Positions 3,746 through 17,571 of a DNA stretch of 31,436 nucleotides are shown here, one piece after another (position 1 is the stretch's first letter; each line of letters opens with the position of its first letter). The notes below the pieces were generated by a model. The model ran no database searches, was not told where the DNA came from, and saw only the letters and a list, made by a program, of their open reading frames with translations. Made by a program: the position numbers and the translations under genes. The DNA comes from Promethearchaeota archaeon. GTDB lineage: Archaea; Asgardarchaeota; Lokiarchaeia; Sigyniarchaeales; SOKP01. Location: NCBI GenBank assembly GCA_018238625.1, contig JABCSY010000047.1:1-31436 (forward strand), read 5' to 3'.

Positions 3746-6700
3746 TGGTCTGATAAGAATATTAAAATGAGTACCAACCATGCCCCAATTCATATTAATG
3801 GGTATATTAGTGGGAATTGGTCCGCTGCAAAAGCCGCAGGAATTTGCACAGGTTCAGGAACATATAATGACCCTTATATAATTGAAAATTTTGAAATAGA
3901 TGGGGGAGGGTCGGGAAGTGGTATAATAATTGAAAACTCTGACGTCTATTTTAAAGTCGAGAACTGCACAGTTATCAATTCAGGATCACAATCTAATGAT
4001 GCGGGAATCTATTTATACAACATTGATAATGGACAATTGATTAATAATACCTGCTCAAATAATAATAATTATGGGATACTTTTAGATTGTTATAATAATA
4101 ATAACACTATTTCCGGAAACACCGTAAATAGTAACGCTCTTGTTGGGATATATTTAAATTATTGTAGTAATAATAACACAATTTTTAATAATACATGCTC
4201 AAATAACAGGATTTTCGGTATATATTTATGGTATAGTAATAATAACATAATTTCCGGAAACATCGCAAACAACAATGGTAGTGGGATACATTTAGCTTAT
4301 AGTAATAATAACACTATCTCTAGAAACATCGCAAATAACAATGATCATTATGGGATATATTTATATAATAGTAATAAAAACACTTTGAAAGGAAATTTAA
4401 TGATTGAGTGTGGAGTATATATCCAGGGTTCACTGGTAGAAACCTCTTCGCAAAATATTGATACTACAAATTTAGTGAATGGAAAACCATTATATTATTG
4501 CATCAATGAAACATTTTTAAAATCTAATAATTTTCCGAACGCAGGGCAGCTGATATTAGTTAATTGTAATGATTCATTAATAGTAGACTTAGATATCTCT
4601 AGTGGTTCATTAGGAATCTTATTATCTTATGGTAAAAATAACACAATTTCTAATAATACTTGCTCAAATAACAATTTTGGTGGGATAAAATTATATAATA
4701 GTAATAAGAACACTATTTCGGGAAATACCGTAAATAACAATTATGAGTATGGGATATGTTTAGATCATTATAGTAATAATAATACTATTTCCGGAAATAC
4801 CGCAAACAACAATTATTATGGGATAGAAATAAGTAATAGCGATATTAACACTATTTCCGGAAACACCGGAAACAACAATTCTGGGGGGATACGGTTATAC
4901 TATAGTAATAATAATACTATTTCTGAAAACACCGCAAACAACAATTCTAATGGGATATATTTAACTTATAGTAATAATAACACTATCTCTAGAAACATCG
5001 CAAACATAAATTTAGCTCATAGTAATAATAACACAATATATTTTAATAATCTCGTAAACAATACCAAAAATGTTTATTCTGTGGATTCAACCAATAAATG
5101 GAACTCTCCGGAAAAAATAGCTTACACCTACAGCAACAAAGATTACACGAATTATCTCGGCAATTATTGGGACAATTACACAGGAACTGATACAGATAAT
5201 GATGGAATTGGGGACACTCCCTACATCATTGAAGGAGATGAAAAAGACAATTTTCCATTGATGGAACCTTTTGAGAATTACCTAAAACCTTCAGCAGACA
5301 CTACGGCCCCAGCGGCAATAAATGATCTATCTATAAGCAATCCGACTGAGAATTCGATTACTTTGACATGGACTGCTCCGGGGGATGACGAAAATACAGG
5401 TACAGCTGCAGGTTATGTGGTAAAATACTCTATGTCGAGATCGATAAATGATTCCAACTGGGATTCGGCTACAACCTATGGTCAATCATGGACTCCGCTT
5501 ACTGCAGACAGTATCGAAACACATGTAGTTTCTGAATTTAGTCCCAATACACAATATTGGTTTGCCATCAAAGCCTATGATGAAATTCCAAATTATGGTA
5601 ACATCTCTAACAGCCCGAGCGGAAACACCTTACCATCGGAAGATAGCACTCCACCCGCGGCAGTTACAGATCTGTCTATAATAAATTCAACGAAAACTTC
5701 GATTACCTTATCATGGACGGCACCTGGCGATGATGGGAATATTGGTACATCAACTGGTTATATTATAAAATATTCGACCATAGGAACAATAAATGAATCA
5801 AATTGGGAAGAAATAACAGTTAATATATGGACAAAAGATAATGCGGTTGTTGCAGGTAATACTGAGATTTGTAAGGTTTTATTACTCAATTCTTATACTC
5901 ATTATTGGTTTGCTATAAAAGCCTACGATGAGGTTTTTAACTATGCTAATATTTCAAATAGTCCCAGTGGTAGTACTGTTCCTTGGTGGAGGCAAGATAT
6001 TCAAATAGGAGATATTTTATTACATAGAAGTTCTAATCCTCTGGGATGGGTCTTGAATTGGACTCATGCGGGTATATATGTTGGGAATTATTGTGTTGTA
6101 GAAGCCGAAAAGGATAAGGATGGAGGTATTAGATCTTATAATATATCTGATTGGGATTTTCCAAATGATACATACGTTTCACTGCTTCGCGTTGTATCGG
6201 CTTCGGTTGAGCAAAGAGAGGGTGCAGCCCAATGGGCTCTAGACCAAACAAAGAGGGTGCCCAAACCAAAATATTGGCTTGATTTTACAGGAAAAAGTTA
6301 TGATCCATCCACGGAGTCATGGTATTGTAGTGAGCTTGTGTGGGCGGCGTATATTAATCAACCAACAAACAATTATGTTTGGTGGGGCATTAATATTGAT
6401 ATGGGTGATGAAGGAGATGTTCCTATCACATGGGAACCCGTATCTCCTGATGATATATATAATGATAATGACACAAGAGTCATTAATGGACATTACGAAC
6501 ATTATCCTGAGGTTAAACCTTTTTTAATTATTAAAACTAATTGTCCAGTAGATCTGTTAATAATCGATCCAGATAATCTTCAGAGGGGTAAAGGGATATT
6601 CGAAATTCCAGACGCTTACTATTTAGAATATGATTTTAATCACGATGGTTCCCCTGACGATTTCATTCTTATACCCGACTTGAAAATAGGTAAATATTCA

Positions 6701-7366: not shown

Positions 7367-8134
7367 ATGGAAGATATTGTCTTATATGAAAAACAAGGGG
7401 ATATTGGAAAGATAACTCTAAATAAGCCAAAACAAAGGAATACAATAGACATACACGTTCTAAAGAAGTTAATAGGCTACTTCAAACTAAGCGCTGAAAA
7501 TGGCGATATATGCGTTATCTATGCTGCTAACGGGAAACACTTTACTGTTGGTGCGGATTTGAAATATGGCTATGATTTACTTACTAACAAAGAAAGATTG
7601 GCTGAGGCTGTTGAATTTCTTGAATCTTGGCAAATTCTCACTCGAGCAATGTTAGCACATCCGGGGATAATAATTGTTGGATATCACGGTTGGGTAATTG
7701 GGGGCGGTTTTGAGCATACTCTTATATGTGACTTGAAAATTGCCGCAACAGATACACGAATCATGTTGCCAGAAGTAGGAGTTGGACTTTTCTTCTCAAA
7801 CGCGTCCACAAAGTTATTGCCTAGAATTGTCGGGGAAACTCGAGCAAAACAGATTATGCTTCTTGGAAATGAGATCTCTGCCGAAGAAGCTCTAAATATA
7901 GGCTTAGTAAATCAAGTTTGTAAACCAGAAGGTCTAAATCGTATTCTTAAAAAAACTGCGAATATGATAGTTTCAAGAGGCCACCTTGCTCTTCAGTATA
8001 CAAAGAAGTTTATAAATGAAAACCAAGATTTAAGTATTGAATCCGTTTTAGCACGCGAATCAATAGCAATGATTACAACTGGGCAATCTGAAGAACTTAA
8101 AAAAAGACTTGAAAAGTTTGTTAAGAAAGAGTAA
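7367..8134 (+). CDS. Enoyl-CoA hydratase/isomerase (crotonase) family protein
   Basis: ITLNKP..RN, FTVGADL, GWVIGGGFE, DLKIAA...LPEVGVG, AEEALNIGLVNQV motifs. ATG at 7367; GTG at 7355 is an alternative start. Confidence 0.92.
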   Translation: MEDIVLYEKQGDIGKITLNKPKQRNTIDIHVLKKLIGYFKLSAENGDICVIYAANGKHFTVGADLKYGYDLLTNKERLAEAVEFLESWQILTRAMLAHPGIIIVGYHGWVIGGGFEHTLICDLKIAATDTRIMLPEVGVGLFFSNASTKLLPRIVGETRAKQIMLLGNEISAEEALNIGLVNQVCKPEGLNRILKKTANMIVSRGHLALQYTKKFINENQDLSIESVLARESIAMITTGQSEELKKRLEKFVKKE

Positions 8135-12831: not shown

Positions 12832-14091
12832 TTAGGAAGAATCTTCTTTCTTGTCAATGAAATAATCTGAATCAAGATTGGGAAATATCTTTTTTTTTCT
12901 TCCTTCGCTTTTGAAATGAACTAAATTAAGATCTAGTAGCTTTTTAACGTGATATTGGATGGTTTTGTGGTCAACTTTAAAGCGTTTTGTTATAATGCTA
13001 TTCCACAGACCAGGTTCTTTTTCGATCAATTGTAAGACTTCTAGCGTTAATTTGCTCTTACTTAATTGAAGGTCAAGGTTTGAGATGGGATTCTTCTGGT
13101 AATAAGGAAAATACGCTATAAAATTCCCAATGCGCTTTTTCCCAATAACCTTGTAAGTTTCTAATATATCGAGGTGCCACACGAGATTACCAGCCGCAAT
13201 TTCGATTTTTCTTAATAACTCGTTAAAGTGAATACCAGGTTCGTTTAGAATTAAATCAATAATTTTATTCCTATTTTCGTTCTCTAATACGTCTTTTAAG
13301 CTTAACCGATGAGCGCCCTTCTCAATTGGAATCGTTCTAGTTTTTAAGTATTGGAAATAATCTTTTTTGGATATTAAAATAGCAAGCGATGCAATCCCAA
13401 TAGCACCAACTATTAAAATAATTACCCAAAACCAATTATCAAAAACCTCGATAATCTCGAAAAAAGTAATGTAATATTCTGTGTCTGCTTGCAAGTTAAT
13501 AAGAGATCCCTCTAAAGAATATTCAGAATTGGACTCATTTAATTGTTCAATTGTACTGATAACTTCCCACGATTCTTGTGAAGGTTCGTATAAAGCTAAA
13601 GAATAACTATTACTTGGATTAAAACCGTATAGAGAATTTTTAAGACTACTAATAGTCATATTTTCTATCGTTGTGTTAGTATTTATTTGAAAGATGCAAT
13701 CGTACCTGTACTGAAATTGAGCATCTCCTTTTTTTGGTCCTTGAGGTGGTCTAGCCATCCCAAAACTTTGCATAGTTACTTTAGAGGTGATATTTAACGA
13801 AATTGGATTACTATTATTAATAAAAAATAAAGTTTGACGATTTTCAATTCTATTTTCATATTGGATTTCTAAGTCAATAAAAGAATCTGTCGAGATTTCA
13901 AAAATTATATTGTTAGAAAAAATATATTTCACAGATTCATTTGGATAGATTTGATCTTGAGTAGAAAAACCAGGTATATTTTCAGTTCTATGAGATAAAA
14001 CATTAGATATTAAGAAACTAAAATTAATGAAGATTAAAAGTAATATAAGAACGCTGAAAATTGATTTGATCCTTAATTTTAATTTTAACAT
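12832..14091 (-). CDS. Membrane-anchored transcriptional regulator: signal/TM, extracellular beta-rich domain, TM, tandem winged-HTH
   Basis: N-terminal hydrophobic helix; TM WFWVIILIVGAIGIASLAILIS; then ENENRNKIIDLILNEPGIHFNELLR...LVWHLDILE and a second wHTH EPGLWNSII...TIQYHVKKL. Confidence 0.85.
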   Translation of the reverse strand: MLKLKLRIKSIFSVLILLLIFINFSFLISNVLSHRTENIPGFSTQDQIYPNESVKYIFSNNIIFEISTDSFIDLEIQYENRIENRQTLFFINNSNPISLNITSKVTMQSFGMARPPQGPKKGDAQFQYRYDCIFQINTNTTIENMTISSLKNSLYGFNPSNSYSLALYEPSQESWEVISTIEQLNESNSEYSLEGSLINLQADTEYYITFFEIIEVFDNWFWVIILIVGAIGIASLAILISKKDYFQYLKTRTIPIEKGAHRLSLKDVLENENRNKIIDLILNEPGIHFNELLRKIEIAAGNLVWHLDILETYKVIGKKRIGNFIAYFPYYQKNPISNLDLQLSKSKLTLEVLQLIEKEPGLWNSIITKRFKVDHKTIQYHVKKLLDLNLVHFKSEGRKKKIFPNLDSDYFIDKKEDSS

Positions 14092-14177
14092 TTATATAGT
14101 CCATTTATTGATCGTTATAATATTTTAATTAAAAAATTAAAAAAAAATTTGGTTTATAGATATAATTATTTTATTGA

Positions 14178-14861
14178 TTATTTTCTCTTTTTCAAATAGA
14201 TTACTGATCCGATTACTATTAAAGCAACAACGCCACCAATGCTCAATCCAATGATTAAAACTGTGTAGTCAGGTATAAGGATAGTCCACGTTGAAAAATG
14301 AGTCACTTCAGCGGTTAGATAACCATCTTTTATGGATGTTGGAACGCTAACCCATTCTTCCGTTGCTTCGTCGAAATAAGCCCATTGACCTACACGATTT
14401 TCGTTAGTTGCCAATATACTTAATTTCGCTTTAGTGAAAGTACCATTGCATTCTAATTTAACAACAAATCCTTCTTGATATTGAACTCGATTACGATTTC
14501 TAATTTGGTAAGTATAGCCCATTAATAACCCTAATTCTTTTTGTTCCTCCGTACAAGTCATATTCATTAAAAGATCGCCGCTACCTTCAATTTCAAGAGC
14601 AAAATCTTTAGAACCGATTTTTGAAGCTTCACAATCAAAGTTTACATCTAAATTAACGTTAGCGTTAAGTCTTAACTGAGTTCCTGCTCTATATCGAAAC
14701 ATGGTCATAGTGTCAGCATGTACATGGTATTCATATGTATCCCCATTAACTTCAACAGTATCGTCTGGATCGCCAACGGCTACGACATTGAAAGATGTAA
14801 CCGTCGAAACAAGGATCATTAGAAAAATTGTGCCTAAGAGAATTTTACTTAATTTTTTCAT
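14178..14861 (-). CDS. Signal-peptide, single-TM surface protein, probably paralogous to the extracellular domain of 12832-14091
   Basis: Signal peptide; beta-rich domain ending WAYFDEATEEWVSVPT...VTHFSTWTIL; C-terminal TM plus KKRK. Confidence 0.8.
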   Translation of the reverse strand: MKKLSKILLGTIFLMILVSTVTSFNVVAVGDPDDTVEVNGDTYEYHVHADTMTMFRYRAGTQLRLNANVNLDVNFDCEASKIGSKDFALEIEGSGDLLMNMTCTEEQKELGLLMGYTYQIRNRNRVQYQEGFVVKLECNGTFTKAKLSILATNENRVGQWAYFDEATEEWVSVPTSIKDGYLTAEVTHFSTWTILIPDYTVLIIGLSIGGVVALIVIGSVIYLKKRK

Positions 14862-15315
14862 TTTTTTTTTTCACTAAATTGTTTTAATTAAAACAAGAAA
14901 AGGGCATATAAAAAGGATTGAGGAATAAAATTACCCAATTGAAAAGCATAAAAAGTACTTTTAAACTGAATAACTATTCATATATCTGGATGTGAATTAT
15001 TAGCGAGAACGACGCAAGCAAATTTTAAGGATTAAGTATAGTATCAATTACTAGTATTATCCCTTAATTTATTTTTAATCACCATAAATTTTTTTATTCA
15101 TCTTTTTGATTATCTTTAAACATAGTTTTAGGTACTGTACTAAAGTCTCAAAAAATGAAGCTTCTTAATCCTTAAGTTTTAATATTATCGTTTTGAAAAT
15201 ATTATTATATATAAAATATTATAAATAATATTAAAAAGAAATTCAGATTAAATTTATTTCAATTAAATTAATATGAATTTTATTAGATTTTAATTTTAGA
15301 AATGGAGAAAAGCTT

Positions 15316-17571
15316 ATGAGCTTAAAAGAATTTACGAAGGAAATATTCACGAGATATGGATTCTCTGAAGATCAAATTAATGTGTATATCGTCTATCTTA
15401 GAGTCCCAAGAGCAACTTCGTCGGAAGTTTATTTGACCTTAACAGAAAGTCACCCTGAATTGACCTATGAAAGCGTTATTGAGATTACTAATTGGTTGGT
15501 TGAAAAAGGATTTCTCAAAAAGGTAACTGGAATTATTGATAGGTTCATTCCATTAGAACCATACTTCGAACTATACATCGGGGAGTCTAAGATGTTTAGG
15601 GACGAAATTGCTAAAATAAAAGACTCAATTTTGACGGATCAATCAGATCGATTCGAAAGTTTGCAGGCTATTCAAGATAAAAGCATTAATGAAGTAGTAA
15701 CTGCTGTTGACGACCAAATAAAAGCTTTTTTTGAAGATTCAGACACTAAAAACAATAATAAAAGAGATAGAATTAATAGTTCAAGAAACCGGTTTACGGA
15801 TACATCTAAAACATTAGAAGAAAATCTTCATTCTATTATGAATACACTAAATTCAGATATCAAAAATATCTCAGATACTAGAGTAAGAGAAAACGAATCC
15901 ACGGTAAATAAAACAAAGGATAGTTTAACAGGATTAATCTCAGAGTTATTATCTGATTTTTCAAAAAGAGTAGAAGATTTAGAAAGAGAACTGAAAAGGG
16001 ATTTAGATGAACACGTAGATCGCCATAAAACTATCGCAAACGATCTTAAACCTAGAATGGAACAAATTCTTGAAAAATATTTGGAAAGAATGGACAAGAT
16101 AATCGTAGACCTTAAGGGAAGGATTTCAAATCTATTAAAAGAACACTTAAACCACCTTAAGGACACCACCGACACCCTTCAAACTAATCTGAAAGCAACA
16201 GTCGACGAAAGACATAGGACGTTAAATGACCAAACCAATGAATTTAAAGGTATGACGTTAACTTTAATAGATAATCTTTTAGAACACGCTAACAGGTTTA
16301 CAGATTTTTCGGCTGAAATGGGTAAAAAGGGATTTTTTTGGATGGGTAAAAAGAAAAAGTATAAAGCAAGACATGAAACTACGATTCAAAACATTCTCAA
16401 ATATACTGAACCTATGAAAGACGATTTTACAAACACAAGTGAGACATATATAAAAGATACTCGAAGTACTTCGGACAACATGAAAACTGACATCACAGAT
16501 ATTATCACATTAGAAAACGATAATGTCGTAAGCGAAACTAACGATTTAGATCATAAAGCACAAGAGACCATAAATGTACAATTAGAAACGCTTGCGAGCG
16601 ATATGTCGGGAGAGATCGATAGCACTTTACAAAGTGGCGTAAAAGATTGCTCCGATACAACTGTTAAGCTTAAAGATTCGTTAGAGAGCTCGCTTAAAAC
16701 TCACCATAAGCAATACGACGAAGCAATTAATCGACATAAAGAGGAATCATTAAGGCACTATACTGCTTATGACACCGATATTAAAAGAATAAAAGAGGAT
16801 TGGATTAGAGACCTTGATGATAAATTTACTGGCGGAAAAAGAGATAGTTCTGACAAAATTACTGCTGAAATTAACTTGTGGGGCGACGAATCAACAGACT
16901 TAGATAGAAACTTAAGTGAAATGCTTATTGATCATAAGTCTAAATACGAAGAAAATGCGAAAACTTTACAAAATAGTTTATCGAATACTACTCGGGATAC
17001 GACACAAAACGTTAAAGATGCGATCGCCGATTTCACGCTCCACTTTATGAACTCCATTGACGACGCCACAGAGTTAGCCGAAAAGAACGAAAGCAAGCTT
17101 AGTGATATACACAACACTTCAAGTTCAATTCCAGAAATAATGGACATTACGACGTGGCAGATTGTTGGACGAGAGGCTCTAGTTGCAGCTATGAAGGATG
17201 CTATATATAGGGTAAAATCTTCAATTATTATCGTAATGCCCTACGTGCTTCCAGAAATTTTACAAGTTATAAGTGAATACGCTTATCAGAAAAAGGCGGT
17301 AAGATTCATGCTAACCTCGAGATTTGATATGGCAACCTACGGCGATATCATAAAGAAGATGATTGCGCTAGGCAATATCCAATTCCGACAATTAAGTGGA
17401 GCTGGCGAATTCTTTGCGCTAACCAGAGACGCTGAAGAAGTCATCATTGGTCCTGCAACGGAAAAAGAAGGAGAAATGATAAGCGTGGTTTCCAATCAAA
17501 CCGCTTATTCGATTCTCTACTCCCAATTTATAGGTCCAATCTTCCAAGCTAACAGCCGCCCAATAAAGTAA
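15316..17571 (+). CDS. TrmB-like protein: N-terminal wHTH, ~520-aa helical/coiled-coil insert, C-terminal TrmB effector (PLD-like) domain
   Basis: YGFSEDQINVYIVYL...ATSSEV...WLVEKGFL...RFIPLEP (TrmB HTH-like); long Pro-poor charged helical region; TWQIVGREALVAAMKDAIYRVKSSIIIVMP...RDAEEVIIGP C-domain. Confidence 0.78.
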   Translation: MSLKEFTKEIFTRYGFSEDQINVYIVYLRVPRATSSEVYLTLTESHPELTYESVIEITNWLVEKGFLKKVTGIIDRFIPLEPYFELYIGESKMFRDEIAKIKDSILTDQSDRFESLQAIQDKSINEVVTAVDDQIKAFFEDSDTKNNNKRDRINSSRNRFTDTSKTLEENLHSIMNTLNSDIKNISDTRVRENESTVNKTKDSLTGLISELLSDFSKRVEDLERELKRDLDEHVDRHKTIANDLKPRMEQILEKYLERMDKIIVDLKGRISNLLKEHLNHLKDTTDTLQTNLKATVDERHRTLNDQTNEFKGMTLTLIDNLLEHANRFTDFSAEMGKKGFFWMGKKKKYKARHETTIQNILKYTEPMKDDFTNTSETYIKDTRSTSDNMKTDITDIITLENDNVVSETNDLDHKAQETINVQLETLASDMSGEIDSTLQSGVKDCSDTTVKLKDSLESSLKTHHKQYDEAINRHKEESLRHYTAYDTDIKRIKEDWIRDLDDKFTGGKRDSSDKITAEINLWGDESTDLDRNLSEMLIDHKSKYEENAKTLQNSLSNTTRDTTQNVKDAIADFTLHFMNSIDDATELAEKNESKLSDIHNTSSSIPEIMDITTWQIVGREALVAAMKDAIYRVKSSIIIVMPYVLPEILQVISEYAYQKKAVRFMLTSRFDMATYGDIIKKMIALGNIQFRQLSGAGEFFALTRDAEEVIIGPATEKEGEMISVVSNQTAYSILYSQFIGPIFQANSRPIK

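Follow-up and report, generated by a model that had tools for sequence, protein, structure and literature searches.

MAIN (Microbial Autoproteolysis INducing) domains, known from bacteria and archaea, are beta-sandwiches of GAIN-B-like type that stand before a surface anchor (Brogan and Rudner, bioRxiv 10.64898/2026.05.12.724683). According to the main text of this 2026 preprint, bacterial MAIN domains are cut between the F and S of an HFS motif and the fragments remain associated. Nearly all, not all, of the domains tested were cleaved, and B. subtilis YfkN and the S. agalactiae IgA-Fc receptor carry MAIN domains at their C-termini. The role presented there is the release of adhesins and enzymes from the surface. 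The main text associates no signalling with the domains or with the cell-retained fragment and makes no mention of DNA-binding or regulator proteins; its survey used RefSeq Select. Signalling by a self-cleaved ectodomain is described for RsgI/SigI, in which a constitutively self-cleaved SEAL ectodomain gates intramembrane proteolysis (Brogan et al., bioRxiv 10.1101/2023.06.27.546760). Here we describe two adjacent genes, A and B, on contig JABCSY010000047.1 of a Promethearchaeota archaeon (assembly GCA_018238625.1; Lokiarchaeia, Sigyniarchaeales). The whole stretch analysed, 31,436 nt long, is referred to as the window, and coordinates of the pair are positions in it (Table 1). We tentatively propose, giving it a little less than an even chance, that A and B form a co-component transmembrane transcription regulator: a MAIN protein, probably self-cleaved, would gate or work with an uncleavable paralogue bearing winged helix-turn-helix (wHTH) domains.

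A prediction made earlier from the sequence of the window alone had described a co-oriented pair, A consisting of a signal, an ectodomain and a membrane helix, and B of the same parts followed by tandem wHTH domains. Open reading frames (ORFs) of this architecture were found on the minus strand, 86 nt apart. Database relatives of gene A (290) and of gene B (501) were annotated as Lokiarchaeota or Promethearchaeota. The signal peptide of A reads as cleaved after VVA. The two ectodomains had also been aligned by eye along their length. Pairwise BLASTP of A against B gave a best E of 0.15, in the wrong region. Profile comparison with hhalign detected the similarity: 39 B orthologues aligned with 36 close A orthologues at a probability of 95% (E 3.5e-8), and the same B alignment matched 53 diverse A relatives (17-50% identity) at 99.3% (E 3.1e-20), across 189 columns that take in the membrane helix. 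Both pairs of segments picked by eye were reproduced in the alignment of close orthologues. Window A also directly matched a B orthologue of the sister family (E 6.8e-10). Among 1.84 billion cluster representatives, the A profile matched 121 proteins at E 0.001 or better, and three of them (P0254, P0304 and P0346) carried the wHTH domains of B. Because of the profile homology and of these A-profile matches bearing B's wHTH domains, A and B are, as judged from sequence, paralogues in their outer parts.

The ectodomain of A is filed here as MAIN-like because of its motif, its position and its profile similarity. As in MAIN proteins, a signal peptide precedes a secreted beta domain that stands right before a surface anchor, and a conserved Trp is accompanied by an H-hydrophobic-S sequence (H-x-S/T) at the turn before the last strand. 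THFSTW (residues 187-192 of A) lies immediately N-terminal to the membrane helix; the original prediction had likened it to autoproteolysis motifs, and the likeness holds in that A fits MAIN domains. A differs from the MAIN proteins of the preprint in its size (227 amino acids, against a mean of 158 kDa), in its anchor, which is a plain membrane helix, and in being paired with a transcription regulator whose fused copy of the domain lacks the motif. The A profile also reached HF[ST] sites in large surface proteins of bacteria; S-layer-homology domains are present in four of these proteins. When 12 bacterial HF[ST] repeats, picked by the A profile, were compared with the A family, hhalign gave 97.7% and E 2.2e-12 over 101 columns (A 86-198). 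In a single case (P0335) the Pfam GPS model was passed at the HF[ST] site, with 27.8 bits against a cut-off of 22.5. The IgA-Fc receptor model of S. agalactiae was matched by P0275 (model positions 993-1037 of 1127, E 6.2e-5) and by P0265 (E 0.01), and the YfkN model by a sister-family A orthologue (G089; positions 1213-1338 of 1411, E 0.005); these two models were matched by just 4 and 1 of the 53 A-family members. A Pfam search of the 53 members found no shared family.

The motif was strongly conserved in A. H188 was the sole invariant column in the alignment of 53 relatives (53/53), F189 was present in 48 and S190 in 52 of them, and W160, F189 and S190 were at least 90% conserved. An H-x-S/T-type motif was found in 93 of the 121 representatives, once at a different sequence position; the 28 motif-less representatives included 21 fragments of less than 170 amino acids and one B-type protein. 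Some A-family members contained two or three tandem MAIN-like copies, each ending in the motif. In the anchor that follows, P197, D198 and T200 were invariant among 36 orthologues. By analogy with bacterial MAIN domains, a cut is expected in A between F189 and S190.

B has lost this motif. The profile alignment placed H-F-S-T-W-T of A on Y206-Y207-I208-T209-F210-F211 of B, and all 39 B orthologues had Y, then Y or F, then I, V, A or L, then T at these positions. In the sister family, HFS was absent from five B orthologues and kept in all six A orthologues. Since Tyr-Tyr/Phe-Ile/Val and similar residues take the place of H-F-S in 39 of 39 orthologues, the ectodomain of B is a dead copy of the A domain. 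The same homology, together with the pairing described below, would also fit a co-receptor without cleavage, in which A and B act like ToxR/ToxS or VtrA/VtrC, the H-F-S of A is structural and A stays uncut. The uncleaved minority among the MAIN domains tested in the preprint and the lack of cargo for A to release are consistent with this. Structure alone hardly explains why the His is invariant, and the Phe and Ser nearly so, when columns of the family are otherwise 20% identical, and B is predicted to retain the fold without these residues. We consider a co-receptor of this kind quite unlikely.

To determine how strictly the genes are paired, 301 sampled genomes of the phylum were searched with profiles of A and B. 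The A profile was matched at full length only in the family of the window (60 of 68 genomes) and in its sister family (7 of 7); other families gave weak matches to the C-terminal part only. At E 1e-25 or better the B profile was matched in 64 of 68 genomes of the window's family, in 7 of 7 of the sister family and in none of the other families (225 genomes). In four of the 64 genomes there was only a short paralogue without ectodomain, and full-length B was therefore confined to the same 60 genomes as A. Thus both genes were present in 60 of the 68 genomes, both were absent from the same 8, and neither occurred alone. In 67 of the 68 genomes with A, all of one Asgard order, A was the gene immediately upstream of B in the same orientation, mostly with a gap of 60-134 nt. 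In the lone exception (G201) B was on a short contig. These counts were taken from 87 A-type and 82 B-type rows, after removal of the rows for short paralogues, the weak rows of other families and the second fragment of any split match. A lack of conserved pairing in other genomes, which would have contradicted the original prediction, was not seen within this order, and gene order and spacing were kept down to about 30-40% protein identity.

MAIN-like and transmembrane wHTH proteins were also neighbours elsewhere. In a Heimdall-type genus, the gene for a protein of 506-521 amino acids with a transmembrane region and wHTH domains has next to it, downstream, a gene whose product bears two MAIN-like domains; in another family the MAIN-like protein comes first, before a transmembrane wHTH protein. 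Anchored MAIN-like proteins and transmembrane tandem-wHTH proteins are neighbours, in independent arrangements, in two further Asgard lineages, one of which has a different gene order. At 5 of 8 further MAIN-like loci checked there was no such neighbour. The module of membrane helix plus tandem wHTH recurs in this order without an ectodomain and with other, larger ectodomains. An example of the former is a 245-amino-acid paralogue of the membrane and tandem-wHTH part of B in the same genome as the window (L021, G000:C195, 1267-2004, minus strand); similar short paralogues occur in most genomes of the window's family.

These data bear on a simpler explanation, that A and B are not functionally coupled. 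A would then be a small MAIN-type surface protein and B a self-sufficient sensor-regulator, co-expressed as neighbours left by a tandem duplication, of which homology and adjacency are the expected trace. MAIN-like proteins without a wHTH neighbour, as at the five loci above, agree with this, and so does a second A paralogue of about 300-320 amino acids (P0241, with matches in 12 sampled genomes, e.g. G270:C47 and G195:C18), which is unpaired. This paralogue has a long Cys-rich insert of CxCxC type in mid-domain, an intact HFS and no adjoining B, and is absent from the genome of the window. Prediction of a complex between B 33-216 and A 29-199, each with its own alignment, can be placed on the same side only as giving no answer: the score was 0.00 in two runs without controls, which weighs neither way. 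Loss and retention of the genes together (60 both, 8 neither, 0 alone), the order and spacing held in divergent proteins and the similar pairings with other gene orders in other lineages argue against independence. We regard the absence of any coupling as unlikely, though with appreciable weight.

The part of B that would act on DNA was assigned from Pfam matches, and wHTH proteins also filled the results of Foldseek and VIA-align searches with the B model. B has two hydrophobic stretches, at 1-34 (an N-terminal anchor with a basic start) and at 210-243. Four K/R residues fall within the first nine, and KK..K.R follows the second helix; because of these positive charges at the N-terminus and after the second helix, the wHTH domains are predicted to be cytoplasmic. 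A topology with the wHTH outside the cell, which would have contradicted the original prediction, is thus disfavoured by the charge distribution. Six N-x-S/T sequons were found in the ectodomain and one in the N-terminal anchor. In the AlphaFold model the ectodomain was all-beta with 14 strands, at a block confidence (pLDDT) mostly of 84-94 and a dip to 55-71 at residues 111-130. Its last hairpin (strands 190-200 and 205-213) continued directly into the membrane helix. The linker after this helix was modelled as disordered, with low pLDDT at 249-261, although it is nearly invariant. The first wHTH was located at the same place by the genome search. The second matched HTH_24 with 33 bits against a cut-off of 21.9, and more weakly ArsR and MarR. 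B would thus be a transmembrane transcription regulator as defined by the combination of a DNA-binding domain with at least one transmembrane region in one protein (PMC10269533). A quite different role, in which B is no transcription factor and its tandem winged helices act at the membrane to scaffold proteins or tether the chromosome (ScpB-like or ESCRT-II-like) within a structural pair, seems to us very unlikely.

Table 1. Parts of the A-B locus, as positions in the window; hydrophobic stretches are from the hydropathy of the translations.
Feature	Position	Strand	Basis or remark
Promoter box GGGTAATTTTATTCC, then TCAATCC, abutting TATA-like TTTTTATAT	14906..14936	-	about 45-75 nt before the ATG of A
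Gene A	14178..14861	-	ORF, 227 amino acids: signal peptide, MAIN-like beta-rich ectodomain, C-terminal membrane helix, KKRK tail
A signal peptide, about residues 1-28 (predicted)	14778..14861	-	MKK start; hydrophobic 3-31
A ectodomain, residues 29-198, MAIN/GAIN-B-like beta domain	14268..14777	-	hhalign to bacterial HF[ST] repeats
A H188-F189-S190 codons, presumed autoproteolytic site	14292..14300	-	motif conservation in 53 relatives
A membrane anchor, residues 199-227: conserved PDYT, helix, KKRK	14181..14267	-	hydropathy 193-225
A-B spacer, 86 nt, AT-rich with T run	14092..14177	-	read from sequence
Gene B	12832..14091	-	ORF, 419 amino acids: predicted membrane-anchored tandem-wHTH regulator; Pfam
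B ectodomain, residues 34-216, motif-less copy of A domain	13444..13992	-	hhalign to A family; AlphaFold
B Y206-Y207-I208 codons, aligned to A H-F-S	13468..13476	-	profile alignment
B second membrane helix, about residues 217-241	13369..13443	-	hydropathy; helix 219-251 in AlphaFold model
B juxtamembrane linker, residues 242-264, starts KKDYFQYLKTRTIPIEKGAHRL	13300..13368	-	nearly invariant across orthologue columns
B wHTH 1, residues 271-329, PF24266 HTH_HVO_0163_N	13105..13281	-	55.6 bits against cut-off 31, E 5.7e-15
B wHTH 2, residues 347-405, HTH_24/ArsR/MarR-like	12877..13053	-	HTH_24 at 347-391

A candidate operator was found upstream of A. A box was the sole conserved block in the alignment of 11 orthologous upstream regions, with the pattern GGGnAA, a few bases, then TTATTCCTCAATCC, adjoining a TATA-like element. 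The 14-mer occurred with at most 2 mismatches in 10 of the 11 regions, at -64 to -71 from the ATG, and is a perfect 14-nt palindrome in two orthologues and an imperfect one in the window. A related form was present in 5 of 6 upstream regions of the sister family. The 22-nt pattern of the box had 5 sites in the whole genome, as compared with 0 for the reversed control. Two of these precede two of three tandem genes for beta-helix surface proteins, one is intragenic, and one further site precedes a TATA-like element with no ORF of at least 70 amino acids directly after it. A scan for sigma-70-type promoters and terminators was set aside as uninformative, the host being an archaeon.

In the mechanism that we propose, B would be a membrane-anchored protein whose two ArsR/MarR-like wHTH domains face the cytoplasm and whose dead MAIN copy lies outside. 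A, the intact paralogue, would display its domain alone on a membrane helix and would most likely cut itself between F189 and S190, the pieces staying held by the beta-sheet as in bacterial MAIN domains. The two related ectodomains would act together at the cell surface, and loss or displacement of the N-terminal piece of A, by force or ligand, would change the state of B. B might then be opened to proteolysis that frees its wHTH part, or might change its association, and transcription would be altered at box-bearing promoters, the pair's own promoter included. In a more far-reaching version, to which we give rather little chance, a GAIN-like domain would form the basis of an archaeal pathway gated by force or ligand, a working analogue of adhesion-GPCR (G-protein-coupled receptor) and Notch-type signalling. 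Here A would be constitutively cut at the same bond and its N-terminal piece pulled off. Either the tethered strand thereby exposed (STWTILIP) or the vacated partner site would act on the dead copy in B, B would be clipped in the membrane, for example by an M50 protease, and the tandem wHTH would go to the box promoters.

Several points weigh against the proposed regulator. Window A had no match to any Pfam family at E up to 1, neither to GPS nor to ZU5. The links of A to validated MAIN proteins go via relatives and are weak for single sequences, and A carries no adhesion or enzyme passenger domain, unlike typical large MAIN proteins. The AlphaFold model of A, built from 36 close orthologues, had a mean pLDDT of 39.6 and was too poor for a fold search. 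Foldseek and VIA-align searches with the whole B model returned lists filled by wHTH proteins. Adjacent paralogues can come from tandem duplication without interacting. The promoter box could serve another regulator, such as the product of the divergent TrmB-like gene described below. Finally, fused forms with an intact motif are rare, being limited to P0304 and the doubtful P0254.

P0304, found on 2 contigs, joins an intact HFS, a membrane helix and tandem wHTH domains in one chain, and as such a single-chain form it speaks for the proposed regulator; a search for relatives of its ectodomain returned itself only. P0254 (L134 3-1205, plus strand) is an in-frame hybrid of an A-type ectodomain with intact HFS and the cytoplasmic part of B. 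It stands at the orthologous place, with the same nitroreductase-like gene downstream as in the window, and its sample series also contains a normal A gene (L135), 84% identical. P0254 was not accepted as proof that intact-motif fusions occur naturally, since it is a singleton on one contig of 2.5 kb and may be a deletion variant or an assembly chimera.

In the low-confidence model of A, the H-F-S motif was placed between strands 181-186 and 191-197, and the ectodomain had one short helix. ESM Atlas returned only unnamed archaeal clusters; a ZU5 cluster (0.78) and PGF-CTERM clusters (0.82-0.83) serve as leads only. Sequence searches of the PDB with the A profiles and with a fragment (P0358) gave no significant match, the best being membrane-helix look-alikes (E 0.4-0.6). 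The best PDB sequence matches of the A membrane helix were to the helix of the amyloid precursor protein (E 0.56), most likely a chance similarity of Gly-rich helices.

Among known systems, RsgI/SigI with its SEAL domains resembles the proposed regulator as a prokaryotic precedent for a self-cleaved juxtamembrane ectodomain that gates transcription, and an M50 protease is also encoded in the genome of the window. SEAL domains belong to a different, SEA-like fold family, and the cleaved domain and cytoplasmic regulator form one chain (bioRxiv 10.1101/2023.06.27.546760). Here the regulator's own domain is dead, window B having no motif for self-cleavage on its chain, and a separate protein carries the intact one; a wHTH protein, not an anti-sigma factor, would be the output. 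ToxR/ToxS, TcpP/TcpH and VtrA/VtrC likewise combine a membrane-bound DNA-binding protein with the product of an adjacent gene, a partner almost without cytoplasmic part (PMC10269533). In the present pair the partner is a paralogue of the sensor domain. The N-terminal OmpR-type wHTH of the ToxR type was not found in B, whose tandem wHTH domains are C-terminal and match ArsR, MarR and HVO_0163 families. Because the DNA-binding domain differs in both type and position, the comparison with ToxR/ToxS is an analogy only.

ArnR and ArnR1 of Sulfolobus acidocaldarius are, like B as predicted, archaeal membrane-bound one-component transcription regulators. The NCBIfam ArnR model had no match to window B at E up to 1, and its match to the Heimdall-type relative was weak, with 16 bits where the cut-off is 400 (E 0.0048). 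To our knowledge, ArnR has neither a MAIN-like ectodomain nor a paralogous partner. With the GAIN domain of adhesion GPCRs, A shares the H-x-S/T site of autoproteolytic type, followed by one beta strand and then the membrane. A has neither the helical GAIN-A part, nor the GPS cysteine pattern, nor a seven-helix membrane domain; it has one membrane helix, and the output would lie in a separate wHTH protein.

A literature search found no earlier description of the A-B pair in its coverage, which did not extend to the supplementary domain tables of the MAIN preprint. An intact MAIN-type domain strictly kept with a membrane regulator bearing a dead copy offers a test case for transmembrane signalling by microbial GAIN-like domains, and the pair may link such a domain to signalling into the cell. 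A force- or ligand-gated pathway, if true, would give microbial GAIN-like domains their first role in signalling across the membrane, and this in the archaeal group closest to eukaryotes. Since the pair occurs in Asgard archaea, it bears on the age of GAIN-type, cleavage-primed signalling. The membrane-bound regulators of archaea, of which little is known, also gain a defined family that has a candidate operator.

The genome contains a gene for an M50-type site-2 protease; no presenilin-type signal peptide peptidase was found in it. The genome (97.9% complete) had no match to PF09721 or TIGR04178 for an archaeosortase, and A was not among its 25 Loki-CTERM matches. A weak Loki-CTERM match was seen in 7 of 53 A-family members. 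At the Heimdall-type locus (L036 4279-7974, minus strand), the transmembrane tandem-wHTH protein (521 amino acids) and the protein with two MAIN-like domains are followed by a heimdallarchaeosortase (E 1.6e-77), and the latter protein has a near-threshold Heimdall-CTERM signal.

The surface-protein genes near the 22-nt sites (L124, G000:C156; 3001-4866, 5050-6837 and 7691-9202) are three tandem paralogues encoding secreted proteins with parallel beta-helix repeats. Two of them have nearly the 22-nt box of A upstream (4958-4979 and 7600-7621). The C-terminal anchors of these proteins (an LDPFILGL... helix and RGRKK) resemble the PDYT-helix-KKRK tail of A.

Divergent from A, the window encodes a protein of 751 amino acids (15316-17571, plus strand). 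Its N-terminal wHTH resembles TrmB weakly (E 0.13), and a long coiled-coil region separates this from a conserved domain at the C-terminus. The orthologue of this protein is not beside the pair in L032 or in the sister family. Orthologues adjoin the pair in L033, L034, L035 and L135, and three are 61-73% identical over 751 amino acids.

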